A stretch of DNA of 64,000 bases from an uncultured Clostridia bacterium. GTDB taxonomy: Bacteria > Bacillota > Clostridia > Christensenellales > UBA3700. This document shows positions 1 through 55,674 of this stretch, one piece after another. A program made the position numbers and the translations under genes. Position 1 is the stretch's first letter. The number at the start of each line of letters is the position of its first letter. Below the pieces are notes generated by a model that searched no databases, was not told where the DNA came from, and saw only the letters and a list, made by a program, of their open reading frames with translations. The DNA lies in the NCBI GenBank assembly GCA_948471525.1, contig CAOKSY010000006.1, positions 11,646 to 75,645 of the forward strand. The letters are read 5' to 3'.

Positions 1-117
1 AAGGCGATATAAGAAAAAATCGCTCGTACTTGCCGTACGAGTCGACTTTTTTATTATGCCGATTTGGCGGCAAAGATGCTGTTTTACTTTCGCTCAGTCT
101 GCTTTTCCGCCGAACTA
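1..117. repeat. Intergenic modular repeat, copy R1 (terminator-hairpin module plus right arm ending in ccgccgaaCTA)
   Basis: nt 1-56 are identical to 15792-15847. They contain the hairpin ctcgtac-ttgcc-gtacgag flanked by an A-run and a T-run. The distal end ttttccgccgaac matches the ends at 16038-16050, 20727-20739 and 30468-30479. Confidence 0.85.
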
Positions 118-4058: not shown

Positions 4059-4195
4059 CGTAATATCTCCGAATAAAGATTCACAATTTTCCCCGTCAGA
4101 ATTCTATGATATTATACAACTTATACAGAAAAAGTAAACTGTTTTGATACACTTTTAAAAATTTTTTTTGAAAAAATCAAAATATATCGAAATTT

Positions 4196-7340: not shown

Positions 7341-8888
7341 TTACTTCTTTGCCGCAGGTTTCTTAGCTGCAGGTTTTTTAGCCGCGGCAGTCGCTTTAGC
7401 CGCCGTTGTTTTTTTAGCGGGAGCAGCGGTCTTTGCGGGAGCGGTCTTTGCAGCAGGTTTCTTAGCCGCAGCGGTTGTCTTGGTCGCAGTAGCCTTTGCT
7501 GCGGGCTTCTTTGCCGCAGTCGTTGCCTTAGCCGCAGTTGCTTTTGCGGGAGCCGCTTTCTTTGCCGCCGTTGCAGTAGTCTTAGCCGCAGCCGCCTTTG
7601 TTGCCGGGGCTTTCTTAGCAGGAGCAGCAGCCTTTGCGGGAGCTGCTTTAGCATCGGGTTTCTTTGCCGCAGTCGTTGCTTTAGCCGCCGTCTCTTTCTT
7701 TGCGGGCGCTGCCTTTGCCGCGGTTGCTTTCTTAGCAGGAGCTGCCGCCGCCGTCTTCTTCGCCGCAGTAGTAGCGGTAGTTTTCTTTGTAGTTACTCCG
7801 CTCTTTGCGCTTGTAGTAGCTTTCTTTGCAGGAGCCGCTTTCTTTGCCGCAGGCTTCTTCGCGGGAGCAGGCTCTTCGACTGCTTCTTCCACAGCTTCTG
7901 CCGCAACTTCTTCAACTGCAGGCTCTTCGACAGGTTGTTCTGCAACTTCTTCTACGATTACTTCCTCAACGGGAGCTTCAACCGCCTCTTCCACGACTTC
8001 CTCGACGATCTCTTCAGTTACATCCTCTACAGGCGCTTCCTCGACGACTTCTTCGATCACTTCTTCTACGACTTCTTCCTGTACGGGAGTTTCAGCAGCC
8101 TCTTCTACAACTTCTTCTATGATCTCTTCGGTCACTGCTTCAGCGGGCTGTTGCGCTACAACTTCCTCGACGATCTCTTCTACGACTTCTTCCTGCGCGG
8201 GAGCTTCGGTCTTAACTTCTTCCTCTGCTACTGCGGAAGCCGCTACTTCAGTCGCCACGTCGGACGCTACCGCGTTCTCCGCTGCGCCTTCGGTCGCTAC
8301 TGCGACTTCTGCCTTTCTGTTTTTGCTGAAAAGTTTGTCGTTCATGATCAAAAACTTCTCTGCAAAGAACATAATGATAAGATCAGCGCAAGAAAATGCT
8401 ATTGTCGCAACATTTAATGCCCAGCCTTCCGGATTCTTATTGATAATAGGCAATGTTGACCAAGAAGGAATACCCATAAGCGCATCTCTGATAGGCGCCT
8501 GTATTGCTACAGATCCTACCCAAAGTACTATGCTGAAAATCACATACATAAATATACCGAAAGCAAGATTATGTCTGGGCTTAAATAATACTTTTCTATG
8601 TAAAATGAAATTGATTACTTTACAAACGAATACTGCAACCAAAGTTACGATAAACGTTCCTTTATATTGCTCCATTCCCAAAAACATAAAATTGATCTTA
8701 TCCATTTCTCCGATTGCAGGAATAAATTTCGTACAAACATTTATTATCACTAACTGTACGATAAATCCCGCCATACTGAGGATTATGAACCAGATAAGCT
8801 GCAAAAATGATTTGCCTTTGCTTTTCTTTTTCGGTTGCTCTGCTACCGCCGTCTCTTCGACAGCCGTATTTTGCTTCTTTTCTTCCAT
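7341..8888 (-). CDS. GtrA-like membrane protein with an acidic (E/V) block and a basic Ala/Lys/Thr/Pro tail
   Basis: The N-terminal ~200 aa has 4 TM-like segments and INFILHRKVLFKPR, which resembles the GtrA motif. Residues ~215-335 carry EEVVEE-type repeats. Residues ~335-515 carry AAKKPAAK / KAAPAKK repeats. Confidence 0.75.
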   Translation of the reverse strand: MEEKKQNTAVEETAVAEQPKKKSKGKSFLQLIWFIILSMAGFIVQLVIINVCTKFIPAIGEMDKINFMFLGMEQYKGTFIVTLVAVFVCKVINFILHRKVLFKPRHNLAFGIFMYVIFSIVLWVGSVAIQAPIRDALMGIPSWSTLPIINKNPEGWALNVATIAFSCADLIIMFFAEKFLIMNDKLFSKNRKAEVAVATEGAAENAVASDVATEVAASAVAEEEVKTEAPAQEEVVEEIVEEVVAQQPAEAVTEEIIEEVVEEAAETPVQEEVVEEVIEEVVEEAPVEDVTEEIVEEVVEEAVEAPVEEVIVEEVAEQPVEEPAVEEVAAEAVEEAVEEPAPAKKPAAKKAAPAKKATTSAKSGVTTKKTTATTAAKKTAAAAPAKKATAAKAAPAKKETAAKATTAAKKPDAKAAPAKAAAPAKKAPATKAAAAKTTATAAKKAAPAKATAAKATTAAKKPAAKATATKTTAAAKKPAAKTAPAKTAAPAKKTTAAKATAAAKKPAAKKPAAKK

Positions 8889-15519: not shown

Positions 15520-16052
15520 GGATTAGATCTCTCCGCTTCGGTCGAGATGACATATTTTTGCTAGAGATTACAGAATTACTAAATTATAAAACGTGAGGCG
15601 GAAAGCAAGTATCGCGCGTCTGCCGCGAGTAGAAAACGGCATACTGCTCGAAGAGGAAGTCTAAATATTTATAAGGATGAGATCTCTCCACTGCGGTCGA
15701 GATGACTGATTAATATGTAAGTAACATAAATATAAAAAATTGTGAGGCGGGAAGGCAGCTGAGCGAAAAAGAAAATTGTAGATTTGCCGTCAAGGCGATA
15801 TAAGAAAAAATCGCTCGTACTTGCCGTACGAGTCGACTTTTTTATTACGGTGTATCGGCGGAAATTTTTTTAATCCCAGATAAAACCTCGTGAGGCGGAA
15901 AGCGAGTATCGCGCGTCTGCCGCGAGTAGAAAACGGCATACTGCGCGAAGAGGGAGCGCAGTCGTACTTGCTGTACGACAAGCGACCTCGACAATGCAGT
16001 ATACCGTTTAATGCCGCGCTAGGCGCGTTATATCTCGCTTTCTGCCGAACTA
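15520..16052. repeat. Intergenic modular repeat cluster R2, the most complete copy
   Basis: It holds two 'agatctctcc...cggtcgagatgac' hairpin modules (15520-15552 and 15675-15707), a half unit (15593-15661), the terminator-hairpin module (15792-15847) and a complete 161-nt palindromic unit (15890-16050). That unit differs from 20579-20739 at only about 5 positions. Confidence 0.9.
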
Positions 16053-17855
16053 AAAAATCTTCCTCACGCTATAGCCGTTCTTCTCAAGCACTTTGACCTG
16101 AGTGGTAACGGATTCGATAAATTCTTCGTTGTTTTTTGTTTTCTGCATCATAGTGAGAAGTTGATCGGTCGTCTCCTGCGAATCTCCGCTGGAAAGCATT
16201 TTTCTCAAAGCCCACACGCCCTCCAATTCCTTCTGAGTGAGCAGCAGATCTTCTCTTCTCGTGGAGGATCGGTTGAGATCGATAGCAGGGAAAATACGTC
16301 TCTCGCTGAGTTTTCTGTCCAGCGTGATCTCCATATTGCCCGTACCCTTGAATTCTTCGTAAATAACGTCGTCCATTCTGCTTCCGGTATCGACCAACGC
16401 TGTTGCGATTATTGTGAGCGAACCGCCGTTTTCGATATTTCTAGCCGCTCCGAAGAATTTCTTTGGGCTGGCAAGCGCGCCGGGATCTATACCGCCCGAC
16501 AGCGTTCTGCCGGTAGGCGGAATCGTCAAGTTATACGCTCTTGCAAGTCTCGTCAACGAATCCATCATAATGACTACGTCTTTGCCGAGTTCTACGAGAC
16601 GTTTTGCTCTTTCTATAAGCAACTCTGCGGCTTTGCAGTGATGCTCTGGCATTTCGTCAAAAGTCGAATATACTACCTCGCCTTTTATTGATCTCTTCAT
16701 ATCGGTGACTTCTTCGGGACGCTCGTCTACGAGAAGCACAAACAACGTGACTTCCTTGTGATTTGTCGTAATAGAATTGGCGATCTTCTTGAGAAGCGTT
16801 GTCTTACCAGCCTTTGGAGGCGACACGATCATTGCTCTCTGTCCTTTACCTATCGGAGCAATAAGATCGAGACTGCGTATCGCAAAGTCGCTGCGCGTCA
16901 CGCTCTTTTCCGCCGTGTTGATCTCCAATCTAAGTCTTTCTTGCGGGAATATAGGCGTAAGCGCGTCGAAATGCGGTCTTTTACGCAGATCGTAAAGGTT
17001 CTTTCCGCTCTCGCCGTCAAAAGCAACTAATTTATATTCTCCCGTCGAAGGGATATCGTTGCCGCGCGCGTCTTTTTGATATACGAGTTCGTATCTCATA
17101 TCGGGATTAACTCTGTCCACGCTGATAAGAGCCGGCGGCTTGTTGTCGCTGTTTCTTCTTGCAAGACCTGACACATAATCGCCTGCGCGAAGTCCCATAC
17201 CTTTGATCAATTTGCCGGGGACGTAGACGTCCTTATCTCCGCACTCGCAGTTCTCAGCGCGCAAAAATCCGTATCCGTCAAGCAATTCGAGAATGCCGCT
17301 CTTATATTCGTTTTCTTCTTCTCTGGGTTCTTCTCCGTCCACGGACTGGAATGATTTGGGACACCTGTTTCTATCTCCCTGATTGTCGTAATAATTCTTT
17401 TGCTTACCGTCTTGAGAAGTTACGGAATCGCCGACTTTGCTTACGTAGTCAGGCTTTGGCGGTCTGCCGAGTTGAGGAGCCTTCTTGGAAATTTCGCTCT
17501 CGTCTCCGCTTGACTTTTCCTTTATTATCTGAAAATATTCTTCTATTATCTCGCCTTTCTTCTTTGTCGTAGGCGATTTTATGCCGATATCTCTTGCGAT
17601 CTTTCTGACGGTATGTATCGTCATATTCATAAAATCTTCTTCTGTGTAGATATGGGGATTCTCGGACAATCTGTCCTCAGGATCGACACTTGCCGTCTGC
17701 AACGCATTATCAGAATTTACGCCTAAAATATTTTCGATCAGTTTTTCCTCCGACATATAAGTCGCGTTTTCCACACCGAGTTTTCTAGCCGTATCCCTCA
17801 ACTGAAATAGATTCTTTGTTTTTAACTCTTCCAACGTATAATTCTTCTTTACCAT
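16050..17855 (-). CDS. rho: Transcription termination factor Rho with an extended N-terminus
   Basis: Walker A is PKAGKTTLLKKIA, the RNA-binding domain has GILELLDGYGFLR, and the C-terminus has RIFPAIDLNRSSTRRE. At 601 aa it is about 180 aa longer than the roughly 420-aa length I recall as typical for Rho. Confidence 0.95.
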   Translation of the reverse strand: MVKKNYTLEELKTKNLFQLRDTARKLGVENATYMSEEKLIENILGVNSDNALQTASVDPEDRLSENPHIYTEEDFMNMTIHTVRKIARDIGIKSPTTKKKGEIIEEYFQIIKEKSSGDESEISKKAPQLGRPPKPDYVSKVGDSVTSQDGKQKNYYDNQGDRNRCPKSFQSVDGEEPREEENEYKSGILELLDGYGFLRAENCECGDKDVYVPGKLIKGMGLRAGDYVSGLARRNSDNKPPALISVDRVNPDMRYELVYQKDARGNDIPSTGEYKLVAFDGESGKNLYDLRKRPHFDALTPIFPQERLRLEINTAEKSVTRSDFAIRSLDLIAPIGKGQRAMIVSPPKAGKTTLLKKIANSITTNHKEVTLFVLLVDERPEEVTDMKRSIKGEVVYSTFDEMPEHHCKAAELLIERAKRLVELGKDVVIMMDSLTRLARAYNLTIPPTGRTLSGGIDPGALASPKKFFGAARNIENGGSLTIIATALVDTGSRMDDVIYEEFKGTGNMEITLDRKLSERRIFPAIDLNRSSTRREDLLLTQKELEGVWALRKMLSSGDSQETTDQLLTMMQKTKNNEEFIESVTTQVKVLEKNGYSVRKIF

Positions 17856-20259: not shown

Positions 20260-20740
20260 GGGTTAGATCTCTCGACTACGGTCGAGAGAACGACTTTGTA
20301 TAACGGCGCGCCTTTCGCTTGATCGAAAGATATCCGTCGCTCACCGTGTACAGCAAGTACACTTGTGGCTAGGGTACTTCCGCTAAAACGAAATCCACAC
20401 CGCTCTCCAAAGTCTGCACACATATATAAAGAAAAAATCGCCCTCAGTGAGGCGGAAAGCGAGATGAATAAAAAATGAATAGGTAGATTTTTCGTCGAGT
20501 GAGCGTTTTATGAGCACCGTCGTACGTCCGTACGTCGATGCGAGTAGAATGTTTAATTTTAATCCCAGATAAAACTTCGTGAGGCGGTAAGCGAGTATCG
20601 CGCGTCTGCCGCGAGTAGAAAACGGCATACTGCACGAAGAGGGAGAGCAGTCGTACTTGCCGTACGACAAGCGACCTCGACAATGCAGTATACCGTTTAA
20701 TGCCGCGCTAGGCGCGTTATATCTCGCTTTCCGCCGAACA
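20260..20740. repeat. Intergenic modular repeat cluster R3
   Basis: A hairpin module sits at 20260-20294. The module gtgaggcggaaagcgagatgaataaaaaatgaataggtagatttttcgt at 20445-20505 also occurs at 30318-30368. A complete 161-nt palindromic unit lies at 20579-20739. Confidence 0.9.
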
Positions 20741-20786
20741 AAAACAATGCGAAGCACTTCTGCCCCGCACTGTTTTTTGGGAATGT

Positions 20787-20843: not shown

Positions 20844-23800
20844 TCACTCAACCGTCTTGTTGTTGATAATCTTTGCGGCCGAGAAATCGTAACCGCCGTA
20901 AGAGAATTCAAACGTGAGAGTGATTTTCTTACCTATCATATCGGCAGAAATTTTGCCGTCTACAAGATCAAACGCATCGCCGATTGCGCTGGAGCTTATC
21001 GCGATATTTGCCTTTACCGTCACTTCGATATCCGCAAGTTTTTCGCCATCGAACGTATCGCTGAGATAGTATTTGCCGTTTTTCCAGACAAGTCTCATAT
21101 CGTGCTTCTCGCCGTTTGTGTCCACTACTTCGAATTTTACAAGATCGTTAAAACGAGTCTCGGAAGCGATTTTACCGTTGTACTTTACATAAGTAAAGTT
21201 AAGCGTTTTCGCCAACGTGATAGCTTTGGTATTTTTGATCGTATTACCGCCGTCAACGATCGTATATTCGATCTCGAAATTAACTGACGGAGACGCATTG
21301 TTGTTTACAGCGCCGGCGCTTACCTTCAGCCATTTGTCGTAGGATATCACGCCGTTTTCCAAGATATCGGTCTTGGTCGAATCGTTTTTATCGTAAACTG
21401 TAACTTTTGCCTCGCGTTTTACGGTAGGATTATTCAAATCGTCGACCATATAGTACTTGCCGTCTTCAAACTTAAGCGTGAGAGTTCTCACCGGAGCAAA
21501 ATCGCCGTCGTCTTCCGCCCAATAGTATACATTGTATGCGCCGTCGATCTGAGAGCCGAGCTTGTCGATGCTAAACGATGAACTCCATACTTCTTCTCCG
21601 TTATTATACTTTCTGAACGAAATGCCGTATTTCTTAGTTTCCGACTTTGTGCCGTCCGCATATACGAGATTGAAGTGCAGGTATACGGAGCTGATCTTTG
21701 CTATATCCTTCTTGAAATTCATCTGAATATCGTCGACGGAATCAATGAGATTGATAAGTTCCTGTCCTTCCGTAGCGAGATTGATCTCACTCAAGGTCTT
21801 GCCCTTTATCTTCAATTCATAATCGCTCGCGTCCAGTATAGCTGACGTATTCAAACTTCCCTTTCTTGCCACTACTTCTATACTCAAATTTTCGGTCGCT
21901 CCGTAGGCAGCTACCTTTACCGAACCGTCGCTGTTGACTATGAGCGAAGGCATTTCGGGATTAACCGCTCTGAAAGTATATCTCTTATTGAACTCAGGCG
22001 CTTTATCATAATAGAATTCGATATAATACTCGTTTCCGTCGTTGACAAGGTACTTTCCGTCGACAAGGTTTGTATCGACAGACGCACCTACGGTCTGAAC
22101 CGTTCCGTCAGTTAGGGTAAGAGTAATCTGTGCGCCCATATATTCTTTGCTCAAATCGAGTTTTGCAGTAGAATCGTATTCGTAAGGGGTCAATTCAAAC
22201 GTCTCGGGAACCTCTTTATCGACTGCGAATTCCGCAGAATCGACTTCCGCAATCGTGAGTTTCAACTCAATCGCGTCCGCTCTTATCGGCAACGCTATAT
22301 GCGCAGGCAGGAATCCTCCTACGAGCGGAGCCTTATAGATATTTTTCAATACGTTGAACAAACCGTCGCTGAGCAATCCGCCCTGTCCGTCCATCGGCAA
22401 TACGTATCCGATAACTGTCTGCTCTTGATTGAGCAAAGTGGTATCGAGTCCGTTGATCGCTACAAGCTGGGTCACAGCCGTGTAAGTCTTTCCGTCCATA
22501 GCGGTATAAGTATACTCAATGTTCTTACCTATAATCTTATCGAGATCGTTGGCAAGTATATGGATGCCGTCCTCAGCGGTGAAATCAACTATATTTTGTT
22601 TTGTATTGAATACTTTGCCGGTAGCCTTGGGATCTGCATTTTCCAAAGCAAGCGGCTTGCTGTTGTTGAACGTACGCGCAACGTTTGCGTCGGTGGGCAG
22701 ATTGAGGATAGCTTCTTTACAGTTGAAATCGCTTGCTACGCCGAATTCTACGGTAGGAGCGTTAAATCTCAAAGTGTTAAACTGAGCGTCCGTATCTGCA
22801 GCGTCGTCGGGACTGAGAAGTCCTTTTATTATTCCGTCGCGGATATTTGCAGTATTGATCTTTATAAGATTTTCCAGATTTACATCGATCAAAGCATCGA
22901 GATTGAATACTTGATTGAGGAAATCGTAAGTCTGCTCTACGTCGAGCGCAAGACCGTTTTCATCTATAGTTATGCATTTGGTTATCAATGATACCAACGG
23001 ATCGAGCATAGTATTTACGTCGAATTGGAATTCTTCCTCGGAATCCGTCGGATCGTCGGGATCTTCGGACGAATCGGCATTCAGAAGGATTTCAAGATCC
23101 AAAGACGTGAATATGCTGTAAGTCTTTACCTCGGAGATCTGCTTCATAAGCATGCTTGCGAGGCTGACGACTTGCGTGACCGTAGTCTCGAAAGATTTAT
23201 CGGAAAACAGTCTGCTCAAGTTTGCCGCCACATATATTTTGGAAGTGCCGAAGTTCTGCGGATCGAACGCTACGTCAAGTATAGAAGTATCCGCCTGTCC
23301 GCCTACTCTCGTCGGGCACATAACGTCGGTACATACGACGCCGTCGGCGCCCGGAGTATGCTCGTGATATACGGAGAAATAGAGTTTCATCTGCTTGACC
23401 GCTTCATCGTTCATCCAACCCTTAGGATTTGTAGTGATAGCCGTGATAAGAGCAAACGGATCGATATCGGCTACGAGTTTATAAGAGAGATGTTCGTAAG
23501 TCTTACCGGTACGGTCGATAAGCTCAAAAGTTCCGTTGACTTCTACGTTGGCGAGATTGATATCTATAGCGCCGTCGATAGCTTCCTGAGAAAGTTTTCC
23601 GCTGACTGAATCATAGAAACCGTCTGCGATCTCGAACGCCTTCAAAGAAGCCGAACCGCCTTCTACTTCTACGCCCGCAGTTGCGCTTCCGCTCTGCGTG
23701 AGATCTATAGTAAAGTCAAAAGAAATCTCATTTTCAGCAAAGAATTTGCCGAAAATTTCAAGATTCTCTTCGCTGATCATATTGCCGATCAGTCCTCTGC

Positions 23801-24623
23801 CGAATTCGCTGTCGAGAACGCTCCAGATATGATTGAGACTGAGCGTAACGCTGTACACACCACCGTCGCTTCTTTGAATATCGTTTTCGCGGAAAAGCAC
23901 GCCCGGCAAAATAGTCTTGACTATCGCCAAGATCTTTTCGTCTGCGTTTATTTCCGGCAGCTTATCGCTTACGGACGACAGTATACTTGCAAGATTGCTG
24001 TTGTTGATAGCAAAAAGCTGCTCGCCTACCGCAAGATACATTGCTCCGTCTTGATAATAAAGTCCAAAAGACTGCTCGCCTACTCCGATTACCGCGTGGA
24101 ACAACGTAGCATTGTTGACCGCGTCGCTGAAATCGATATTGCCGGTCACGTCAACGCCCAACTTGGTTGTCTTACCGCCGGTCTTCACGTTTCCTTCGGC
24201 ATTGAGGCTGAGTCTTACCTTATCTTTGCCCGCAAGTGAAAAAGTATCTATCACTTCATCCAAAAGATCTCCCCAAAGCTGCGACATCGTGGGAGCCGGA
24301 GCTTCTTCGATACGGAGTATTACCTTGGTAGATACCGCCTTATAATTTTCAGTCTCGGGAGCGGATATAGTAATCTCGTATTCGCCGATCTCGGTATATC
24401 CTTTTGCAGGACTGTATGTCAACTCGGCTTCCGTATGGTTGAGCGAAGCCTTAACGTCGTGTTGTTGTCCGTCATAGATGAAAGTCTGTTCGGGAACTGC
24501 GCTTATAAAGCCTGCTTTCTTTTCTGTCTCCACGTCGTCTTTACAGCCGACCAAGAAAACACCGACAGACATTACTACGACAAGCAGTAGCGCAAACAAC
24601 ACTGTGAGTCTGTTTCGTTTCAT
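20844..24623 (-). CDS. Large lipoprotein of unknown function (1259 aa), N-terminal YDG-type domain, paralogue of 24828-27854
   Basis: Signal peptide plus lipobox (VFLVGC). TFIYDGQQH...ENYKAVSTKVILRI matches the YDG-type repeats of the giant proteins. It shares the motif ILDVAFDPQNFGTSKIYVAANLSRLF with the 1008-aa protein. The RBS is aaggagg. Confidence 0.85.
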   Translation of the reverse strand: MKRNRLTVLFALLLVVVMSVGVFLVGCKDDVETEKKAGFISAVPEQTFIYDGQQHDVKASLNHTEAELTYSPAKGYTEIGEYEITISAPETENYKAVSTKVILRIEEAPAPTMSQLWGDLLDEVIDTFSLAGKDKVRLSLNAEGNVKTGGKTTKLGVDVTGNIDFSDAVNNATLFHAVIGVGEQSFGLYYQDGAMYLAVGEQLFAINNSNLASILSSVSDKLPEINADEKILAIVKTILPGVLFRENDIQRSDGGVYSVTLSLNHIWSVLDSEFGRGLIGNMISEENLEIFGKFFAENEISFDFTIDLTQSGSATAGVEVEGGSASLKAFEIADGFYDSVSGKLSQEAIDGAIDINLANVEVNGTFELIDRTGKTYEHLSYKLVADIDPFALITAITTNPKGWMNDEAVKQMKLYFSVYHEHTPGADGVVCTDVMCPTRVGGQADTSILDVAFDPQNFGTSKIYVAANLSRLFSDKSFETTVTQVVSLASMLMKQISEVKTYSIFTSLDLEILLNADSSEDPDDPTDSEEEFQFDVNTMLDPLVSLITKCITIDENGLALDVEQTYDFLNQVFNLDALIDVNLENLIKINTANIRDGIIKGLLSPDDAADTDAQFNTLRFNAPTVEFGVASDFNCKEAILNLPTDANVARTFNNSKPLALENADPKATGKVFNTKQNIVDFTAEDGIHILANDLDKIIGKNIEYTYTAMDGKTYTAVTQLVAINGLDTTLLNQEQTVIGYVLPMDGQGGLLSDGLFNVLKNIYKAPLVGGFLPAHIALPIRADAIELKLTIAEVDSAEFAVDKEVPETFELTPYEYDSTAKLDLSKEYMGAQITLTLTDGTVQTVGASVDTNLVDGKYLVNDGNEYYIEFYYDKAPEFNKRYTFRAVNPEMPSLIVNSDGSVKVAAYGATENLSIEVVARKGSLNTSAILDASDYELKIKGKTLSEINLATEGQELINLIDSVDDIQMNFKKDIAKISSVYLHFNLVYADGTKSETKKYGISFRKYNNGEEVWSSSFSIDKLGSQIDGAYNVYYWAEDDGDFAPVRTLTLKFEDGKYYMVDDLNNPTVKREAKVTVYDKNDSTKTDILENGVISYDKWLKVSAGAVNNNASPSVNFEIEYTIVDGGNTIKNTKAITLAKTLNFTYVKYNGKIASETRFNDLVKFEVVDTNGEKHDMRLVWKNGKYYLSDTFDGEKLADIEVTVKANIAISSSAIGDAFDLVDGKISADMIGKKITLTFEFSYGGYDFSAAKIINNKTVE

Positions 24624-24827
24624 AATTTACCTCCTTGAATTAAATTCAATTATTCTTCAGTATCATTGTGGAGCGGCATACTGAATTCTAACTGAATTAT
24701 CGAAAAATTTTAGGAAGTTTTAATGATTTTTGACGCAAAATAATTTGACGTACCGATAAGGTCAAAATAATTAAAATGTATTGATATATAAAAATAAATA
24801 TTTATTTAAAATATTACGGCGATCAAC

Positions 24828-27800
24828 CTAATTGACCGCCGCTACGTCGACTTTGATCCGTATTACCGAAGATGCAGATCCCAAATTGACCGCTATCTCA
24901 TAAAAACCGCTTTGCTTAAACATGAGTTTGAACGAGACGGAAATATTTTTGTATATAGTAGCGGGAAGGACTATGTTATACGGAAACTCTATAGCCTGCC
25001 TGTCTATACGTGCGTCCGACAAAACGTAATGTCCGTCGGGATCGTCAATAATGCTGTACGATAAACCTCCGAAAGAATTCACACGTCCTACCCTTATCCT
25101 TACGCTGAGACCGAACGTCCCGCCTTCGTCTCCGTGATAGGTGTTGAAAATCTCCGCCGCGAAAGAATAATTATAGTCCTTAAAATAATATTCTCTCGAG
25201 GGAGTAGCGTCGACTATATCGTACTTGCTCTTATCTACCTGCGGTTCTTTTGGCGAGATATAGAGCGCCACGTCTGCCGACAAACCGTCGAATTGATACG
25301 TCAGCGAATATTTTCCCGTGCGTTTGAAATATATTCCCTCGTTTATTCGAGTAGGATCTGTATAAAAAATATCGTTGGGAGTATAAATATCAAACCCGTT
25401 GATCTTCATATATTTGAGCGGAAGCGTCGCTCTAGTCACCGTGCCGTCGGTGAGCGTCCACACTATTTCCGCCACGCGCAGTTTGGAATAGTACAGTTCC
25501 TCTTTGAACTCTAGCGTAAGCTCGTCCGTACTAGTCGCCAGTCGAACGTCGCTCGCAGGAGTTATCGCGAGTTTATATCCTTTGTAATGACCGTACAAAT
25601 AGAAGTTGAGCACCGTATCGGAAGAAGACTTGATAAACCGTCTGGAAGAGGAACTTTCGCTTTCTTTAAAAATCACGTCAGACGCATTGGTCGCATAAAC
25701 GTATCTCGTCTTGATCTTTCCGTTATCAAAATGTATATCCGCGCTGATCCTATCGGGAATATCTCCCGTAGACAGTCTCTCGCCTTGCATATAAGAAGTC
25801 TTTTGAGGGCGTGAAAATTCCACGCTGTCCACATCGTCAAGTTTTATATATGTTTCTACGCATACGCAAAGCCATTTTCTCCACTCGTAATTACCTATCT
25901 CTTCCCATATTAATTTCCACAGTTCTTTGCCTACAGGCAGACAATAAAGTTTGACCTTCTGCCAATCGTTGCTTGCCAAATCTATTTCGCTGTGATCTAC
26001 TATGCGCAACTTACAATCGGAAGTCTCTCCGTAGATATTCTCTCCTTGTGCATTTATATAAGATCCGGACAAATCGTCGATCTCCTGCCGCGACATAGGC
26101 ACAAAGGAATCGAAGAGCACACCGTCTTCATAAATATCGTTATATATCGGCGCAGTCTCGCCAACTCCGTCCACTGTATCAGTATCAAGTTTATAAGAGA
26201 TATTAGGAGCGGATAGCAATGTCGCCGTATATTGTTTTGTACCCGCGACGTCGTTGCCGTAGAGATGAACGGCGCTGCGCTTTACGTCGTAATCGGACAC
26301 GTTCCATCTTAGATATTCTTGCTCTACGGAAACCGTATCTATATAATACGCATCGCCTTTGAACAACGTCATAAACGTTTTTATGCTTTCGCCGTCAAAC
26401 CCCGCAAGAGCCAATATTCTCTCTATAGACGCGGAGATAGAACCGTCGGAATAGATGAGAGACATAAGTATCTCCTCCGCAAGCGTGCTTCCCGATTCCT
26501 GTCCGTAGGTTGCGACGGCGTCGACATTCTGTCTCGACAGCGTGTCGGACGATATGACTGCGAGGAAGTATTCTGGGATGAAATTAGATACGATAGATTC
26601 CGCGCTCGTAAACGAAGATACAAATCTTTTGCTCAAAAAAGCCCTCGCGCCCACGCTCACGTAGACGTCGTAAGTGCCGAAGTCGTCGGGAGAAAAAGCC
26701 ACGTCCAGTACGGCGCCCTTTGCTCTGTCGTATTTGTCGGAACAAAATGCGGCGCACTTATCAGAACATCGATGCGACATTCTGAAATGAAAGAAGTTGT
26801 CGCTCTCGAGGCTTTTGAGATCGCCGCCTCCTGCAAAAAGATCGAGTATATCTATCTTTGCTCTGAATTCATAATCGTATTCCATCTCCGTCCGCTCCGC
26901 AGAGGAATTTTCCAATTTGACTTTTCCCACAGTAGTTACGTCGGTAAGTCTGCCCGCTTCGTAAAGGGACTCGTCGGGTATATATTTAGAGAGATCCTTG
27001 CGTCCGTTAGAAATGGTGTATTCCGGAACAATTACGCCCAACTCCTTTTCAGTATCGTCGCGATCGTTTCTATAATAAAGACTTTGACAATCTACAGAAC
27101 TTATCTTACCGCCTTCCAGAGCGATACATATCTCGCCCTTTAAAGAGGGAGTGCGATCGAGCATATCAGAATAATTTTCCACTTTTGCCAATGAGAAAAA
27201 TACCTTTTGCAGCACTTCGGGAAGAGAGAGAAACATATCCTTTGATACAGCGTTGTCAAGACCTTTTTTCAAATCGAAATCAAAATAATACTTAGTGCCG
27301 TCGGCATTGACGTTGCCGTCGGTAAAAAATATTCCGCCAAGCGCAACGAAAAGCGCTCCCGGCGTGGAATAATCCACTCCGCCGCCCATAGCTTTTGCCG
27401 CCGTAGTCAATGTATATATAAGAGGCGCGTGATCGAATACGTTGCGTTGATATTCGCCCGCGTCGTCCTGCCACAGACTCCAATATAGAGTGTCGTCGCA
27501 AGAATATACGTCAAGCAATATCTTACTTTCCCCGTCGCGGACACGTTCTATTCTAAGCGCTCCCTGCTGTCCTGAGCGCGAATTCAAATCGAGATTTAAT
27601 TCAAGAGCGCATTCATATCCATCTCCCGTATTTTTATCCTCGGCTTGAGCGCGAATAGAAAAAACAACGGGTTTCTCTGTAGATATATTCATATACTGCC
27701 TGTCGAGCGCAGCCGCGATATCGACCAAAAAATCTTGCCAAGGAGTGATGGGAAGATTTTCGTCGTTTCTTTTCGAGCCGTCGCAAGCCGTCGCGCATAC

Positions 27801-27854
27801 AAATAACGAGATCAACAGCAATATCGATAATATCACAAAAACTCTGCGACGCAT
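24828..27854 (-). CDS. Large lipoprotein of unknown function (1008 aa), co-transcribed with the two-component system
   Basis: Signal peptide plus lipobox (VCATAC). VLDVAFSPDDFGTYDVYVSVGARAFLSKRF is homologous to the 1259-aa protein. The ATG lies 1 nt after the histidine kinase TAG stop. Confidence 0.85.
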   Translation of the reverse strand: MRRRVFVILSILLLISLFVCATACDGSKRNDENLPITPWQDFLVDIAAALDRQYMNISTEKPVVFSIRAQAEDKNTGDGYECALELNLDLNSRSGQQGALRIERVRDGESKILLDVYSCDDTLYWSLWQDDAGEYQRNVFDHAPLIYTLTTAAKAMGGGVDYSTPGALFVALGGIFFTDGNVNADGTKYYFDFDLKKGLDNAVSKDMFLSLPEVLQKVFFSLAKVENYSDMLDRTPSLKGEICIALEGGKISSVDCQSLYYRNDRDDTEKELGVIVPEYTISNGRKDLSKYIPDESLYEAGRLTDVTTVGKVKLENSSAERTEMEYDYEFRAKIDILDLFAGGGDLKSLESDNFFHFRMSHRCSDKCAAFCSDKYDRAKGAVLDVAFSPDDFGTYDVYVSVGARAFLSKRFVSSFTSAESIVSNFIPEYFLAVISSDTLSRQNVDAVATYGQESGSTLAEEILMSLIYSDGSISASIERILALAGFDGESIKTFMTLFKGDAYYIDTVSVEQEYLRWNVSDYDVKRSAVHLYGNDVAGTKQYTATLLSAPNISYKLDTDTVDGVGETAPIYNDIYEDGVLFDSFVPMSRQEIDDLSGSYINAQGENIYGETSDCKLRIVDHSEIDLASNDWQKVKLYCLPVGKELWKLIWEEIGNYEWRKWLCVCVETYIKLDDVDSVEFSRPQKTSYMQGERLSTGDIPDRISADIHFDNGKIKTRYVYATNASDVIFKESESSSSRRFIKSSSDTVLNFYLYGHYKGYKLAITPASDVRLATSTDELTLEFKEELYYSKLRVAEIVWTLTDGTVTRATLPLKYMKINGFDIYTPNDIFYTDPTRINEGIYFKRTGKYSLTYQFDGLSADVALYISPKEPQVDKSKYDIVDATPSREYYFKDYNYSFAAEIFNTYHGDEGGTFGLSVRIRVGRVNSFGGLSYSIIDDPDGHYVLSDARIDRQAIEFPYNIVLPATIYKNISVSFKLMFKQSGFYEIAVNLGSASSVIRIKVDVAAVN

Positions 27855-30090: not shown

Positions 30091-30482
30091 GGATGAGATT
30101 TCTCGACTATGCTCGTAAGGAGCGAAGCGACGGCATAGCGAGCAAGCAGGTGCGTCTCGTGCGAGCGTCAATGACAAGTCATAAAGTCGTCATATTGAGC
30201 GTAACGTAGTGCAGTCGAAATATCTAATCAATTTGATTAATAGGATTAGATCTCTCCGCTACGGTCGAGATGACAGCTTTTTTGCTAGAAATTACAGAAT
30301 TATTAAATTATAAAAACGTGAGGTGGGAAGCGAGATGAATAAATAAGGAATAGGTAGATTTTTCGTTGAGACGCTATAAGAAAAAAATCGCTCGTACTTG
30401 ACGTACGAGTCGACTTTTTTATTACAGTGTATCGGCGGAGATGCCTATTTACTTTTATTCAGCCTCGCTTTCCGCCGAAATC
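30091..30482. repeat. Intergenic modular repeat cluster R4
   Basis: Hairpin modules sit at 30091-30120 and 30243-30275. A 63-nt module at about 30113-30175 is the reverse complement of 47116-47178. The terminator-hairpin module is at 30371-30426. The right arm ends in ctcgctttccgccgaaa, 3 nt before the ypeB stop. Confidence 0.9.
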
Positions 30483-31844
30483 CTACATCAACAGTTCGCC
30501 TTCGTCGCTATCGATGACCTGCATTACGCGCACTTCTTTACCGGTGAGAGCGTCGACGAATATATAGAAATTGTAACCGTCCATACTTCCGAAGACCTCA
30601 TAGGTCAAAAGTTCGTTGCCGCCGCGCATAGGGATAAGCGCGAGCCTTACCGAAGTTACGCTCATTCCGCCGAAATCCATATTGGTTATCTCGCCCTCGG
30701 TCACTTTGGGAGTATCGAGTTCTCGAGCAGTGTGATTGTGGATATAATTCAATCCCTCGAATCCCACTATCTTGCCGTCGTCGAGCGAAACTTTGACCTT
30801 TATCATATCGGGATAAAGTATTACGCCGTCTTGTTTATAGCACATATTGACGAATAGAATACCGTCGGTCACGCAGGCATATACTCCTTCCATATTTTCA
30901 TAGCCCTGCTTGGACATATACTGTTCGGCAAGAGTTACGCCTTCTTCCACGCTGAGTTTAGGTTCTTGGGAATCGAACGAACAATCCCACATAACTATCG
31001 CCCCGCCTTTTTTCGCCAACTGTACGCTTGCAATATTGCCGTCTTTCATAGTCACTTGATATAGATAAGAATCAAAGCCGTTGCTGTTTTCGGTAATAAA
31101 CTCTACGCCGCTGACTTCGTAATCGCAAAGTATTCCTTTTATGCGATCTTCCTGACCGTCTTTTGAAACATCTTCTCCGCTCAAGCCCTTGACTTCTCTG
31201 TCAGTAAGCGAATCGCTGAACGCTCCGTCGTATATCAATGACGGATATTCTATCGTGCCGTCTCCGAGCGACGTTGCGATATTGACGAAATCCACATTCA
31301 ATTTTTCTATTCCGCCGACTATCTTCTTGCCCGCTACGAGACTCTCTTTTACTCCGCCGAGGCTTTTGCCGAGTTTGTAAGTCGCCTGATAAAGTCCGTC
31401 GAGATTATTTCTGTCTTCGTCGGTAAGATCGATCCCGTTGGCAATCTTCTGCGCAAGATACTTGCAGTAATCTCCCACCTGATTGCAGTACTTTATCACC
31501 GCGGACATGTCGTAACCGTTATACGACAGCGTAGTCAGATTTGCTACTGCCGTCTGCGAATTCATTGCGATCTCTATCAGCATCTCGTTGACAAGACTTT
31601 GCGTCCTGGTCACGCGGAGTTTTGACAATCCGTTTTCCATATTAAGCAGACTGTCTGTAAGAGTATAATACGCATTCTCGTAATTATACTCGCTGTTTGC
31701 CATCCATTTGGCTTCCTGAGACTTGGATATTCCCAAGAATACCGACAGCACCGTTATCGCGGCTATGACAATTATAGCCATCGTTATCAAAAATGCTTTC
31801 CAGCCCTTTGTCATTACAATTCTGCCGGACGCGTCTCTCAACAT
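30483..31844 (-). CDS. ypeB: Germination protein YpeB-like
   Basis: 453 aa with an N-terminal TM segment. It sits directly downstream of sleB and has PepSY-like C-terminal repeats. The RBS is gaggtg. Confidence 0.8.
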   Translation of the reverse strand: MLRDASGRIVMTKGWKAFLITMAIIVIAAITVLSVFLGISKSQEAKWMANSEYNYENAYYTLTDSLLNMENGLSKLRVTRTQSLVNEMLIEIAMNSQTAVANLTTLSYNGYDMSAVIKYCNQVGDYCKYLAQKIANGIDLTDEDRNNLDGLYQATYKLGKSLGGVKESLVAGKKIVGGIEKLNVDFVNIATSLGDGTIEYPSLIYDGAFSDSLTDREVKGLSGEDVSKDGQEDRIKGILCDYEVSGVEFITENSNGFDSYLYQVTMKDGNIASVQLAKKGGAIVMWDCSFDSQEPKLSVEEGVTLAEQYMSKQGYENMEGVYACVTDGILFVNMCYKQDGVILYPDMIKVKVSLDDGKIVGFEGLNYIHNHTARELDTPKVTEGEITNMDFGGMSVTSVRLALIPMRGGNELLTYEVFGSMDGYNFYIFVDALTGKEVRVMQVIDSDEGELLM

Positions 31845-33720: not shown

Positions 33721-33750
33721 GATTATTGCCAAAAATAACGTTTTGATACA
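33721..33750 (-). promoter_or_regulatory. Candidate sigma-F-type promoter upstream of spoIIR
   Basis: The minus strand reads tGTATC, a 14-nt spacer, then GGCAATAATC. This is close to the B. subtilis sigma-F -10 pattern GGnRAnAnTW as I recall it. It lies 27 nt upstream of the ATG. Confidence 0.35.
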
Positions 33751-34061
33751 CGGTCAAATGGATTTCTCAGAAAAATCTTTCACAGTTGTCAAATTATTAT
33801 TTGCCGTAATCAAAATACCGGAGCGTATTTATCGTCACATCATAGCAAACCGACAGTTTCCATATTTTCGCGCGTATCGTAACAGTTATGATATTTATTG
33901 CGCAGTTTGTGATCCAATCGCCTTTATTGTATGCCGGCTAATCGATCGCGCCGAGAGTATCCGCACCGAAAAGTAGTATTCGCGAACGATTGACAAATCG
34001 CTTATTTTTAGTATAAAATATTAATTAACATTAAATAGACGGGAATCAAGAGGATTTTTAA

Positions 34062-38016: not shown

Positions 38017-41000
38017 TTACGCCGATTGCTTTCCGCCTTTCTTTTTCTTGACTACGATCACTGCAACGACCGCAGCTGCCGCAAGGATAACGACCGGTAT
38101 GATTATTCCGAGTACCAAACCTACGTTGGATCCCGACTTAACTTCTACCTCGAATACCTTGCTGATACCGTCGTAGTTCTGGTTGCCGTCTACGGTCACC
38201 ACCACGTAATACTTGCCCTTGGGCGCGTCGGCGAGGTTTTCGGTATATTCCTGCGTGAGCGCCGCGTCGGTGTAATACTTGACGGTAGCGTTGCCGTACT
38301 TGGACGATACGGAAGCAAAGTCAGCCAATGCAGGCAAACCTCCGTCCAAATCGGGCAATACTATTTCGCCGATAAAGCTGTTGGCAGCCTTTGTGATATT
38401 GAACGAAACGGAAGTATTGGACGCCGTCGGACTGAGCGTATAGTTGGGGTTCTTGACCGTAAACGCTCTTGCGGTATAGCTTCCGACGTTGATAGCAACG
38501 CCCTCGTCTATTATTACATCAAATTCTACTACGTCTCCGTTGATTGCGCCTACGCCGCTTGCTATAGGAGCCTGCGACTGCGGCGTATTGTTGAGTTCTT
38601 TATACTCAAGCGTCGTGTTGGACCATACGATAGCTGTGATCACCTTGGGACTGATCGCAAATTCGCAAGTTGCGCCTTCCTCGGGAAGTCTGTAATTCTT
38701 GTTGAGTAATTCTACTACCGTAGCGATATGCGTACCTGCATTTGCATTTGCTCCGCCTACTACTACTTCGCATACGTCGGAACCGAAGAGCGATGCCTGA
38801 TCGACGTGAGCCGTCGGGCACTGCGGATTGCCGTTATAGGCAAACGACGCTACATCCCATACGATATTGACTTCCGCAGGAAGAATAGTGAATTCCTGAG
38901 TGGAGACAGCCTTATAGTTGCTGTTGGTAAGCGAAGTGATGCTTGCAGTATGCGTGCCCGCGCTGAACTGCGGAGCGCTTACGGTAACGTCGCACTCGTC
39001 GCCGAAGAGCAATCCGCCTACCGTCGCTGTAAGTCCGTGCGCCTCGCCGTCGTATACGAACGTCGTCTGCGAAGACCAAGTGATCTCTACTTCTCTGGGA
39101 AGAATCTCGTAGGTTACCGTTCTGCTCTCTTCGGATACTTTATAGTTGGGGTTGTTGGAAAGCACTACTATAGTTACTTCGTACTTACCCACGTCCTTCT
39201 GCGAATGGTTGATATATGTGGGCGCTTCGATCCTGTCGTTGCCTACCAAGCCTTCGAATCCCGCTACTTTAAGCAACTGATAGTCGCCGTTGTAGACTAC
39301 GCTTGCCGTACCCCAATCCGCTGTTATCGTCTTGGGTACTATATGGTACGGAGTAGGATCCTGAGCGGAAGAATCGTCGAGCGCAATTTCGATATAGGAG
39401 TTTTCGTATTCCAATACGAGAGCGTATCTGCCTGCGTCTACGGCGTTTTCTCTTATCGAGAATTTGACGATATCCTTTAGGTCTACCGCGAGAGTTCCGC
39501 TCTTGACGGAAATATTCATTCTTTCATAGATCTCATCGGACGTGAGCGCTGTCTGTCCGTATTCTACTTCGACGGGATCCGCGCTGTAGACTACTCTGGC
39601 CTTGTTGACTACAAGCGTAAATCTGCCGTATTTGGTATTGTGGTTGGCGATAGTTATCTCATAATATATGATTGCTCCTTCCGCGCCGGTAACGCCTTCT
39701 ATACCGGGAAGAGTATCGGTGTATTCGCCGTCTGCTCTATCGGAGTATTTGACTGTAGCCGTATTCCACTTGGATCCCATATCTCCGGCGAGAGTTATTC
39801 TCTCTTCTACGTTTTCCGCAATGTAAGACTTGAGATCGACCGTCTGAACGGATCCGTCGTAAGTAACGGTATTGCGCTGTACGTTGACGGTGATGTCTGC
39901 CGGTACAACGTGGAGATATGCCTCGCTGAACTCGATGTCGTAGTCCAAATTGGTCCACTCAGCCGCAATCCTGTAATCTTTTACCGGAACGTATCCGGAA
40001 GTCGGCAAGCCCTGCAGAGAAAGCGTTATGCCGGGATTGGAAAGGTCTACGCCTTCCGCTTGCCAAGCCGCGTTGGACTTATCCCATACTGGCTCACCTA
40101 CAAATCCGTACGTCACCTGCTGAGTATTGAAGATAGTCACGTTTACCTTGAGCGGAACGATCTTATAGTCGATACTGATATTGGATTCAAGCTGATAGTT
40201 CGCCGTAGTTTCGCCGCTCTGCAATACTGCCTCCGCGGTATATTTTTCTATGCCTGCGCTGAGATTAGTGTGCACGTGTTCGATACCCAATGCGCCGAGT
40301 TTTATCCAATCCTCTACCTGTTGCGAACCGTCCCATTTCGTGCCCTGTATGTAAGCGTTGATCGTAAGCGGTCTTCCGGTATAGGTAAATTCGTATCCGT
40401 CGCCGATTGCCTGACCGGTGATATGATCTCCGTCAAACCACTGAACGCTGATCTTCTGCGGAGTGATGACAAACGCGCTTGCGTTACATCTTGCTCCGTC
40501 TACGACCGCATACTCTACTATGTAGTTGCGACGTTCGTCCTCTTCGTTGCCGTCGAGTTTTGCAAACTTGTGATATACGCGGTAATTGCCTACGCTGTTG
40601 GCAAAGTTATTTGCCTCTGTGGGATCGCCGCCGTCGGCGCCCTGCTCTCCGCCTGCTACTACGTAGAAGATGAAAGAGTCTCCGATATTGGCTATGGTCA
40701 CGGGCTTGCCGCCTGCGGTGACCGTATACGTCACGCCCGTGCCGCGTTTGATATGATCGGATATATCTTTCTCGGTCCTGTCGCCGATAGGTCTGCCGTA
40801 TTCCTTGGTCGCCTTGCCCGGCATATTTATTGTTACGTTTACGGCTCTAATCTCAAACGTGAGGTTTGTTCTGATCCTTGCCTTGTGGTTGGGAGCATTT
40901 ACTCTTACCGCAAACTCGTACAAGCCTGCGTTTCTAAACTTAAAGTCTGCTCCGCTCACCCATCCGGTTTCGTCTTCGATATCGGAACTTACGTTGATGA

Positions 41001-46965: not shown

Positions 46966-47250
46966 ATATAGATTTCTCGACTACGCTCGAAATGACAATG
47001 GTATTATCGTCATATTGAACGAAACGCAGTGAAGTCGAAATATCTAAGTCAATTAATAATCGAGTTCTCTCCACGTTGATCGAGATGACGATAAAAGTGC
47101 AATTCAAGTCTAAGTCGTCATTGACGCTCGCACGAGACGCATATGCTTGCTCGCTACACCAATGCTTCGCTCCTTACGACTGTAATGGAAATTTCTAAAT
47201 TCGGTCATTTCGACTGAAGCGCAGCGTAATGGAGAAATCTCATCCGATAA
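46966..47250. repeat. Intergenic modular repeat cluster R5, between the two giant genes
   Basis: Hairpin modules include agatttctcgactacgctcgaaatgaca, cgtcatattgaacgaaacgcagtgaagtcgaaatatct and gagttctctccacgttgatcgagatgac. The 63-nt module at 47116-47178 is inverted relative to R4. Confidence 0.85.
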
Positions 47251-55602: not shown

Positions 55603-55645
55603 AAATTTTCCTCCCAAAAGAAAATATTTATTATAAGTCAATGAT

Positions 55646-55674
55646 ATTTTATCATTAGACAAATTGCATGTCAA
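55646..55674 (-). promoter_or_regulatory. Sigma-A promoter of the ~2700-aa gene
   Basis: On the minus strand, TTGACA (55674-55669), a 17-nt spacer and TAAAAT (55651-55646). Confidence 0.55.

Follow-up and report, generated by a model that had tools for sequence, protein, structure and literature searches.

What are the repeated sequences that fill five intergenic regions of an uncultured Clostridia bacterium, and which protein, if any, might recognize them? The locus that raises this question is a 64,000-nucleotide stretch of contig CAOKSY010000006.1 (assembly GCA_948471525.1, positions 11,646 to 75,645), hereafter the window. A prediction made earlier from the letters of this DNA assembled the five regions from four modules in different combinations: a short hairpin (a), a 161-nt palindrome (b), and two smaller units, (c) and (d). 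Our analysis makes it likely that the five regions are mosaic intergenic arrays of two unrelated families, namely hairpins of the class described as Ssn-related motifs (SRM) or NTS, and long palindromes that resemble miniature inverted-repeat transposable elements (MITEs).

We found by direct reading, with a repeat finder, and by BLAST of the intergenic sequences against themselves that the five regions (1-117, 15520-16052, 20260-20740, 30091-30482 and 46966-47250) are interlinked; the repeat finder and the self-BLAST joined no other region of the window to them. The modular, dispersed organization that had been proposed is upheld. The arrays are short (0.3-0.5 kb each) and occupy the window's four longest intergenic regions as well as the one truncated at its start. 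Together the modules cover 1793 nt, or 2.8% of the window and 23% of its approximately 7.7 kb of non-coding DNA (a total taken from a simple gene list), in agreement with the earlier estimates of about 1.8 kb, 3% and one fifth. The sequences 1-56 and 15792-15847 are, as had been stated, 100% identical, and 15868-16055 and 20557-20744 share 96% identity. A check against Rfam yielded no match in the window at gathering scores and three weak matches at E<=1, none of which lies within the five regions. A CRISPR-like reading was ruled out, as there are no regular arrays with unique spacers.

The most conspicuous module is the short hairpin, (a). Its units are oriented, with a GTCAT head, an imperfect stem-loop and an ATC(T) tail. 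The hairpin pattern is present in the window in four exact copies and one near copy, versus none expected from shuffled sequences. Where the original prediction listed at least eight variants, we counted 11 hairpin-type units: type 1 is represented by five, one of them degenerate, type 4 by two, and types 2 and 3 by one each; the rest are a perfect-hairpin variant whose head is degenerate and two expanded units of 80-85 nt. A descriptor combining head, stem and tail (GTCAT, an imperfect palindrome and ATC, within 20-50 nt) fits 7 of the 11, the other four being degenerate or expanded. The four type-1 copies retain the full conserved block, head included. Module (a) is indeed a stem-loop, but single units are weak: as single-stranded DNA (ssDNA), type 1 reaches -4.5 kcal/mol (z -1.4), with outer and inner stems of 5 and 3 bp separated by a GA/A internal loop, and only the unit at 20260-20291 forms a perfect 9-bp hairpin. 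The mismatches of the type-1 stem are conserved as highly as its pairs, a pattern that fits base-specific recognition by a protein.

The hairpin is not confined to this bacterium. A scan of one genome per species with the pattern AGATCTCTCNNCTNCGGTCGAGA returned at least 147 copies in at least 117 genome stretches, and these stretches share a conserved block with sharp borders, AGATCTCTCC-R-CT-N-CGGTCGAGATGAC, across about ten phyla: by record title, Bacillota, Chloroflexota, Bacteroidota, Patescibacteria, Pseudomonadota, Acidobacteriota, Planctomycetota, the Verrucomicrobiota/Kiritimatiellota group, Cloacimonadota and Marinisomatota. In a logo built from one copy per locus (116 loci), the free positions proved to be C (99%) and R, the loop base was free, and TGAC, which lies outside the search pattern, was 91-95% conserved, while both flanks were random. 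Stop-free stretches of at least 150 aa cover 79% of the loci yet contain only 19% of the copies. The motif is found several times per complete isolate genome with varying loop bases; this recurrence, the variation at the loop and R positions, and the fact that copies bracket a gene (below) rule out a sequencing-adapter artefact. Viral contigs in IMG/VR gave one match to the type-1 motif, which makes a phage origin unlikely. Types 2, 3 and 4 are likewise matched in distant phyla (type 3 unit a11 at 86-97% in SR1, Saccharimonadales, Pedobacter, Flavobacteriaceae and Acidobacteriaceae loci), whereas the expanded unit is matched only in metagenome-assembled genomes (MAGs) of Clostridia (a4 at 93-95% at loci L001 and L035). 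Together with conspecific short-read contigs that break inside modules, this distribution demonstrates a dispersed family rather than a local duplication, as had been predicted. The sequence AGATCTCTCCGCTTCGGTCGAGATGAC translates to RSLRFGRDD, and spurious open reading frames (ORFs) with that string are present in other genomes; the earlier association of such mini-ORFs with Firmicutes was too narrow, because the hairpin occurs in about ten phyla.

Two further arrangements of the hairpin were seen in other phyla or genomes. At L115 (4570-7650), L104 (4680-4930) and L091 (1220-2360), type-1 hairpins form regular tandem arrays with a period of 109-150 nt, alternating with a second hairpin type in the manner of bacterial interspersed mosaic elements (BIMEs) or neisserial intergenic mosaic elements (NIMEs). 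At L016 (2035-2090), L017 and L116, two units are fused tail-to-tail via a palindromic AGATCT, heads outward, giving the longer palindrome GTCATCTCGAG...GAGAGATCTCTCC...GAGATGAC.

Hairpins of similar anatomy have recently been worked out in Neisseria, where a longer oriented motif, NTS (CGTCATTCCCGCGMAVGCGGGAATCYRG), contains the dRS3 repeat, and in many phyla NTS-like SRMs were reported on the flanks of ssnA homologs (Chenal et al. 2025, Nat Commun 16:2388, PMC11893778). According to that account, SsnA is a 94-aa single-domain GIY-YIG protein of family cd10448 that binds a single strand of the motif, exclusively as ssDNA, cleaves shortly upstream of the motif, and is inactive on double-stranded DNA and RNA; an SsnA homolog is present in 81% of SRM-rich genomes. 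In N. meningitidis, the SsnA-NTS pair modulates natural transformation, and its role elsewhere is stated there to be unknown (PMC11893778). The units of the window share with this class the GTCAT head, the imperfect stem, an apical CG-NAG-CG-like loop and the ATC tail; they are 27-45 nt long, multi-copy, intergenic and clustered, and their clusters adjoin surface-protein genes, as in N. meningitidis (PMC11893778).

All ORFs lying no more than 2.5 kb from the motif in the 117 loci were grouped into families. The neighbour family common to the most loci (9 of the 117 listed) is a protein of 91-106 aa with a GIY-YIG domain only; in the Ssn-like neighbours, a single Pfam GIY-YIG domain (PF01541) spans the whole protein. 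Hairpins directly flank seven of the nine genes, each of these in its own genome; in six cases they are heads-out, with the upstream unit in GTCAT orientation and the downstream unit in ATGAC orientation. Units of type 1, type 2 (the type of a7, at L068) and a type-4-like form directly bracket the genes in L012, L020, L029, L056, L068 and L091. The remaining two genes (L050 and L116) are YhbQ-like, have no flanking hairpins and were excluded from the count. At L052, motifs matching the published SRM search sequence stand on both sides of the gene, and the encoded protein is 48% identical to the Ssn-like protein of L029; the other five, which are flanked by TCGAG-type hairpins, are 48-60% identical to the latter. 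Searched against NCBIfam, these GIY-YIG neighbours gave only sub-threshold matches and no specific model, and their nearest PDB entry is UPF0213 BH0048 (1zg2). No RAYT-like ORF (RAYT, the tyrosine transposase associated with repetitive extragenic palindromes, REPs) and no HUH Y1 ORF was found among the shared neighbours in the 117 loci.

This bracketing of GIY-YIG genes by hairpins reproduces the published SRM-Ssn association (PMC11893778). Because L052 has canonical SRMs and its protein is akin to the proteins flanked by TCGAG-type hairpins, we file the module under this class: judged by its anatomy and gene association, module (a) is a member of the SRM class that lies outside the motif as published. 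Its function, which the original prediction took to be wholly unresolved, can accordingly be placed with that of SRM/NTS (PMC11893778), and the cognate enzyme to seek is Ssn (a cd10448 GIY-YIG protein) and not, as had been proposed, a TnpA(REP)/IS200-like transposase. By analogy with SsnA, the hairpins would be ssDNA recognition sites of small single-domain GIY-YIG nucleases: once the GTCAT strand is single-stranded, in replicating or transforming DNA, Ssn would bind the hairpin and nick this strand a few nucleotides 5' of the head. We infer that an Ssn of the host itself may act on the sites in the window.

One pair of units bears on the possible mobility of these hairpins. The heads-out doublet of the fourth region, a type-4 unit (a5), a 17-nt linker and an inverted type-1 unit (a6), is alignable end to end in six lineages from four phyla; its five partners come from MAGs, two of Patescibacteria and one each of Clostridia, Gammaproteobacteria and Flavobacteriaceae. 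In the doublet's second stem, three of six pairs exhibit compensatory changes, with 100% of cells paired; none of 500 shuffles reached the observed score, and no slid register came close. These data indicate that the hairpin stem matters, despite the weak folds of single units. At the Flavobacteriaceae locus, the doublet's two hairpin types bracket an Ssn-like gene, and the doublet therefore looks like an SRM-ssn-SRM unit minus its gene. It may thus represent a gene-less miniature of that unit, and it is the best hint that the SRM-ssn-SRM unit is, or was, mobile.

The second family consists of long palindromes. Module (b) and a unit that we term e-c-d are each imperfect palindromes of approximately 160 nt, with common termini GGCGGAAAGCGAG (the shared ends read GTGAGGCGGAAAGCGAG ... 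CTCGCTTTCCGCCGAA and are written GT..GGCGGAAAGCGAG) and a common apex, CGTAC-TTGCY-GTACG. Given these shared ends and apex, (c) and (d) are not separate modules, as had been thought, but the apex and one arm of a single palindrome of the same family as (b). The modules of the original prediction are real, but the set of four was incomplete and must be extended by a spacer, s1 (41 nt), by module f and by the two expanded units. As claimed for the 161-nt unit, (b) (15890-16046) folds as one long imperfect hairpin (-48 kcal/mol and z -5.9 as DNA, z -7.1 as RNA); e-c-d does so as well (z -7.1). Module f has ends other than GGCGGAAAGCGAG and the apex GTGTAC-TTGCT-GTACAC (z -3.3). The apex GTAC-TTGCY-GTAC is common to (b), e-c-d and f, and recurs beside hairpin units at three loci of related Clostridia MAGs. 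A pattern of paired terminal repeats 115-140 nt apart had three matches in the window and none in shuffles, and copies of (b) and e-c-d there amount to three complete units and four partial ones. With terminal inverted repeats (TIRs) of 13-17 bp, small size, no coding capacity and multiple copies, (b) and e-c-d show the traits of MITEs, and (b), e-c-d and f, at approximately 125-160 nt, are best regarded as candidate MITE-like palindromes. A 145-aa ORF over (b), used as a protein query for further copies, returned only its own cluster.

The apex of e-c-d lies between an A-run and a T-run, and the hairpin of module (c) scores as terminator-like on both strands (15813-15833 on the plus strand and 15832-15814 on the minus strand, with a match to the consensus), in support of the earlier suggestion that it resembles a bidirectional terminator; no T-run follows the apex of (b). 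Three of four TIR palindromes begin 0-3 nt past a stop codon: their end CCGCCGAA lies 0-3 nt from a TAG stop at the Zn-ribbon gene (115-117), rho (16050-16052) and ypeB (30483-30485). The e-c-d apex would be expected to act in both directions as an intrinsic terminator directly behind these three stop codons. The two families meet in a recurrent composite, [TIR palindrome] + 41-nt s1 + type-1 hairpin, in which s1 is invariably found between the other two parts.

We obtained contigs of conspecific strains by exact-protein look-ups and found that their flanks are near-identical to the window while the arrays differ. Module (b) is polymorphic independently at three loci. After rho, it is present in the window and most strains and absent from L119 and L122, which have an intact e-c-d instead; upstream of prs, it is present in the window, L118, L119 and L121 and absent from L120; after the Zn-ribbon gene, it is present in L145 and absent from the window and nine other contigs. 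Upstream of prs, L119 also lacks 123 nt, hairpin a3 included, with TAT microhomology at the borders of the deletion, and L120 has a canonical type-1 hairpin and s1 in place of the window's f and a3, together with an intact form of the d-c' TIR palindrome. At the Zn-ribbon locus, L137-L141 carry the full TIR element, s1 and the type-1 hairpin. Many conspecific short-read contigs end inside modules, as expected for dispersed repeats. Exact look-ups of the 195-aa and 2910-aa proteins beside the fifth region returned no record from other strains. The arrays change rapidly, either through insertion or through cassette-like exchange among copies. Strains differ in genes as well: the sensor-kinase gene is split into 102 + 325 aa instead of 411 aa in L128, L134 and L136 (1057-2290), and the second ABC-transporter gene is split in L122 (6550-8719); these splits look like strain-level frameshifts.

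Several results weigh against reading the arrays as Ssn sites mixed with MITE-like elements. Neither the 64-kb window (tblastn; profile hidden Markov model, E<=10) nor the conspecific contigs fetched contain an Ssn-like gene. The published SRM search sequence, HGTCWYN(0-2)YYVSBRHN(0-5)WNVSBRGN(0-2)RNCYNB, finds canonical SRMs in 8 of the 117 loci and has no match on either strand of the window (random expectation, approximately 0.2), which places the window's TCGAG-type hairpins outside that motif. The predicted ssDNA hairpins are weak for most units, and orientation bias is not significant, the GTCAT strand lying on the leading-strand sequence in seven units and not in four. The window has no transposase-like ORF, as the original prediction had noted; the six left and four right palindrome ends show no target-site duplication, and no parent insertion sequence (IS) was identified for the palindromes. 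The TIR-pair and s1+hairpin patterns had no match in JGI metagenomes, which yielded no further copies of (b), (c) or (d), and the elements had none in PLSDB plasmids searched in distant mode. Finally, the (b) polymorphism always replaces the outer e arm, so that targeted insertion and copy exchange through shared ends both come into question, and recombination or gene conversion among copies accounts for it no less well than transposition.

How do other explanations fare? One would have the modules selected as RNA only, as transcript 3'-end structures (terminators, stabilizers or small RNAs), with no recognition or mobility at the level of DNA. The terminator-like score of module (c) on both strands speaks for it, as do the three TIR palindromes that begin 0-3 nt past a stop codon and the great stability of the long palindromes as RNA folds, and stem covariation alone cannot separate RNA from ssDNA. 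Nevertheless we hold this explanation to be quite unlikely: there is no Rfam family match, the short hairpins are thermodynamically weak and lack T-runs, (b) has no T-run after its apex, and the published enzyme leaves RNA untouched (PMC11893778). Moreover, an exact 27-nt sequence that recurs in about ten phyla in either gene orientation, and brackets a nuclease gene, is atypical of local RNA structures. It is similarly improbable that the arrays are inert, decaying relics of past invasions whose strain variation stems solely from replication slippage and homologous recombination. No enzyme gene is present in the window or the fetched contigs, some units are degenerate (a3 and a9) or truncated (15594-15661), the L119 deletion is bordered by microhomology, and the constant relative position of (b) is what homologous-end recombination would give. 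Set against these points are the four type-1 copies that keep the full conserved block with its head, and the (b) copies, whose 96% identity and polymorphism at three loci in near-identical strains imply recent events.

Another idea equates the hairpins with REP or REPIN sequences that an IS200/IS605-like HUH tyrosine transposase disperses. It draws on an analogous architecture, comprising an oriented head, an imperfect palindrome, inverted doublets and BIME-like mosaic clusters, and the authors of the Ssn study themselves liken NTS-ssnA-NTS to an insertion sequence and to REP/RAYT (PMC11893778). It founders on the repeatedly bracketed gene, which encodes a GIY-YIG and not a Y1 HUH protein, on the absence of RAYT-like ORFs from the shared neighbours of the 117 loci, and on the head, which is GTCAT rather than the GTAG of REPs; we consider it very improbable. 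A bolder extension of the Ssn interpretation is that the doublets, and perhaps the composite of TIR palindrome, s1 and type-1 hairpin, are non-autonomous elements moved in trans by Ssn, and that SRM-ssn-SRM is an unrecognized class of ssDNA transposon with a GIY-YIG enzyme of approximately 95 aa and MITE- or REPIN-like derivatives. We regard this pair of proposals, taken together, as unlikely; if it were true, horizontal spread would explain the identical 27-nt sequence in about ten phyla. The mosaic of SRM/NTS-class hairpins and MITE-like palindromes remains the interpretation that we favour.

On this favoured interpretation, the arrays can be set beside four known systems. The kinds of element named as candidates in the original prediction (MITE, REP/BIME-like element and terminator) were well chosen. 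With SRM/NTS-Ssn, the window shares, besides the hairpin anatomy, the bracketing of approximately 95-aa GIY-YIG genes by the same hairpin types in several phyla; it differs in its stems, which are of TCGAG and TCGAC types outside the published degenerate search sequence, in the lack of an ssn gene in the window and fetched contigs, and in its host, a spore-forming member of the Bacillota. The Ssn paper reports SRM clusters in Gram-negative bacteria other than Neisseria, and it mentions neither Bacillota nor Bacteroidota nor MITEs; expanded 80-85-nt units and cross-phylum heads-out doublets do not figure in the portion of its main text used here (PMC11893778).

NIMEs are arrays of dRS3 repeats interspersed with RS elements, and Correia elements occur within them; the arrays differ in content between strains, adjoin surface-protein genes, and were stated to be unobserved outside Neisseria (Bentley et al. 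2007, PMC1797815). The window's arrays likewise have short hairpin repeats spaced by other repeated modules, contain long TIR palindromes, vary in content between strains at syntenic positions and adjoin surface-protein genes. They differ from NIMEs in that the modules are unrelated in sequence and the arrays are short. Because the dRS3 repeat ATTCCCN8GGGAAT has no match in the window with up to one mismatch allowed, the resemblance is architectural only.

Bacterial MITEs in the form of long imperfect palindromes include Correia/CREE, ERIC, RUP and similar families. The likeness to MITEs (PMC3184786) lies in size (approximately 160 nt, f 123 nt), in the TIRs of (b) and e-c-d, in the folding of the whole unit as one ORF-less hairpin, in the intergenic position, the several subfamilies and the presence or absence between strains, and in the carriage of terminator-like structures. 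The differences are that neither a target-site duplication nor a parent IS was identified, that (b), wherever inserted, takes over the outer arm of an element already in place, and that subfamilies differing elsewhere, and different species too, have the conserved apex hairpin in common. REP/REPIN-RAYT and BIME systems (PMC3116915) also combine short oriented palindromes, inverted doublets that look like the mobilizable unit, a repeat-flanked enzyme gene and mosaic clusters. The head of REPs is GTAG. The window differs in its GTCAT head and in the enzyme class, GIY-YIG instead of HUH Y1, and mobilization by Ssn is only hypothetical.

Table 1. Repeat modules of the five intergenic regions (positions are those of the window).
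Feature	Position	Strand	Remarks
(c) apex (1-56) and e arm of TIR palindrome, cut by window start	1-114		end CCGCCGAA abuts Zn-ribbon stop (115-117)
a1, type 1 SRM-type hairpin	15520-15551	-	GTCATCTCGACCGAAGCGGAGAGATCT on minus strand
spacer s1	15552-15593		recurs at 30275-30317 and in conspecific strains
truncated left arm of (b)	15594-15661		95-97% identical to 15889-15953 and 20578-20642
a2, type 1 SRM-type hairpin	15675-15706	-	
d arm, c apex (15813-15833) and shortened e arm of TIR palindrome	15742-15867		
(b) palindrome (15890-16046) with 22-nt leader	15868-16049		directly after rho stop codon (16050-16052)
a3, SRM-type hairpin	20260-20291	-	degenerate head GTTCT; perfect 9-bp stem
module f, third long palindrome	20292-20414		123 nt; 69% match to L001, beside hairpin unit
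d arm and c' apex (GTCGTACGTCCGTACG) of TIR palindrome	20447-20556		e arm replaced by (b)
second (b) palindrome with leader	20557-20739		
a4, expanded hairpin-type unit	30091-30175	-	head GTCATTGAC..., tail ...GAGAAATCTCATCC
heads-out doublet	30189-30274		86 nt: type-4 a5, 17-nt linker, inverted type-1 a6
a5, type-4 unit of doublet	30189-30225	+ (GTCAT strand)	
a6, type-1 unit of doublet	30243-30274	- (GTCAT strand)	
spacer s1, second copy	30275-30317		
complete e-c-d TIR palindrome	30318-30479		ends 3 nt from ypeB stop codon (30483-30485)
a7, type 2 SRM-type hairpin	46970-46996	-	GTCATTTCGAGCGTAGTCGAGAAATCT on minus strand
a8, type 4 SRM-type hairpin	47009-47045	+	head-to-head with a7
a9, degenerate type-1 unit	47060-47089	-	direct reading
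a10, expanded unit	47117-47196	+	inverted copy of a4, 89% to 30113-30175
a11, type 3 SRM-type hairpin	47204-47245	+	GTCATTTCGACTGAAGCGCAGCGTAATGGAGAAATCTCATCC

The genes of the window lie nearly all on the minus strand, and plus-strand GC skew is negative throughout (-0.08), so that the minus strand carries the leading-strand sequence. The earlier statement that every cluster lies 3' of one gene and 5' of the next fails at the first region, which sits between convergent genes. Genes flanking the arrays encode Rho, an ABC transporter, Prs, YpeB, a response regulator and a Zn-ribbon protein, and the presence of ypeB indicates that the host is a spore former. The arrays are also flanked by genes for four large proteins without a Pfam match. 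Two are giant paralogues of 2910 and 2724 aa (38017-46749 and 47500-55674), whose 3' ends are 76% identical; each bears a signal peptide and, C-terminally, a membrane anchor with a KKKK tail; the other two, of 1259 and 1008 aa (20844-24623 and 24828-27854), are lipoprotein-like, with lipoprotein-type signal peptides. The window's genes are also present in ENA assemblies and in the NCBI MAGs GCA_949746665.1 and GCA_949088765.1, and the closest relatives among the fetched loci are Clostridia MAGs. Elsewhere in the window, the direct-repeat output is dominated by the gene at 7341-8888, whose long Ala/Lys-rich C-terminal tail arises from 15-nt periodic repeats, and a motif beginning GTTTTGATACAC is common to three other intergenic regions (4141-4178, 24778-24815 and 33740-33777) and may be a regulatory site.

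Since the class of the most conspicuous module was biochemically worked out in 2025 (PMC11893778), our finding is not categorically new. What it adds is a widespread TCGAG-type branch, present in about ten phyla and missed by the published search motif; a cross-phylum, gene-less doublet with stem covariation; a new MITE-like palindrome family whose conserved apex doubles as a predicted terminator; and a NIME-like array, in a Clostridia-like bacterium, that turns over at the level of strains. In practical terms, the repeats produce spurious mini-ORFs and break short-read assemblies. The gene-less doublet bears on a question raised by the Ssn study, namely whether the SRM-ssn-SRM unit is, or formerly was, mobile. 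Our results further indicate that the Ssn/SRM system, described in the 2025 account mainly from Neisseria and other Gram-negative bacteria (PMC11893778), reaches an uncultured spore-forming member of the Bacillota, and that NIME-like mosaic arrays beside surface-protein genes, thought to be peculiar to Neisseria, exist elsewhere and vary between strains.

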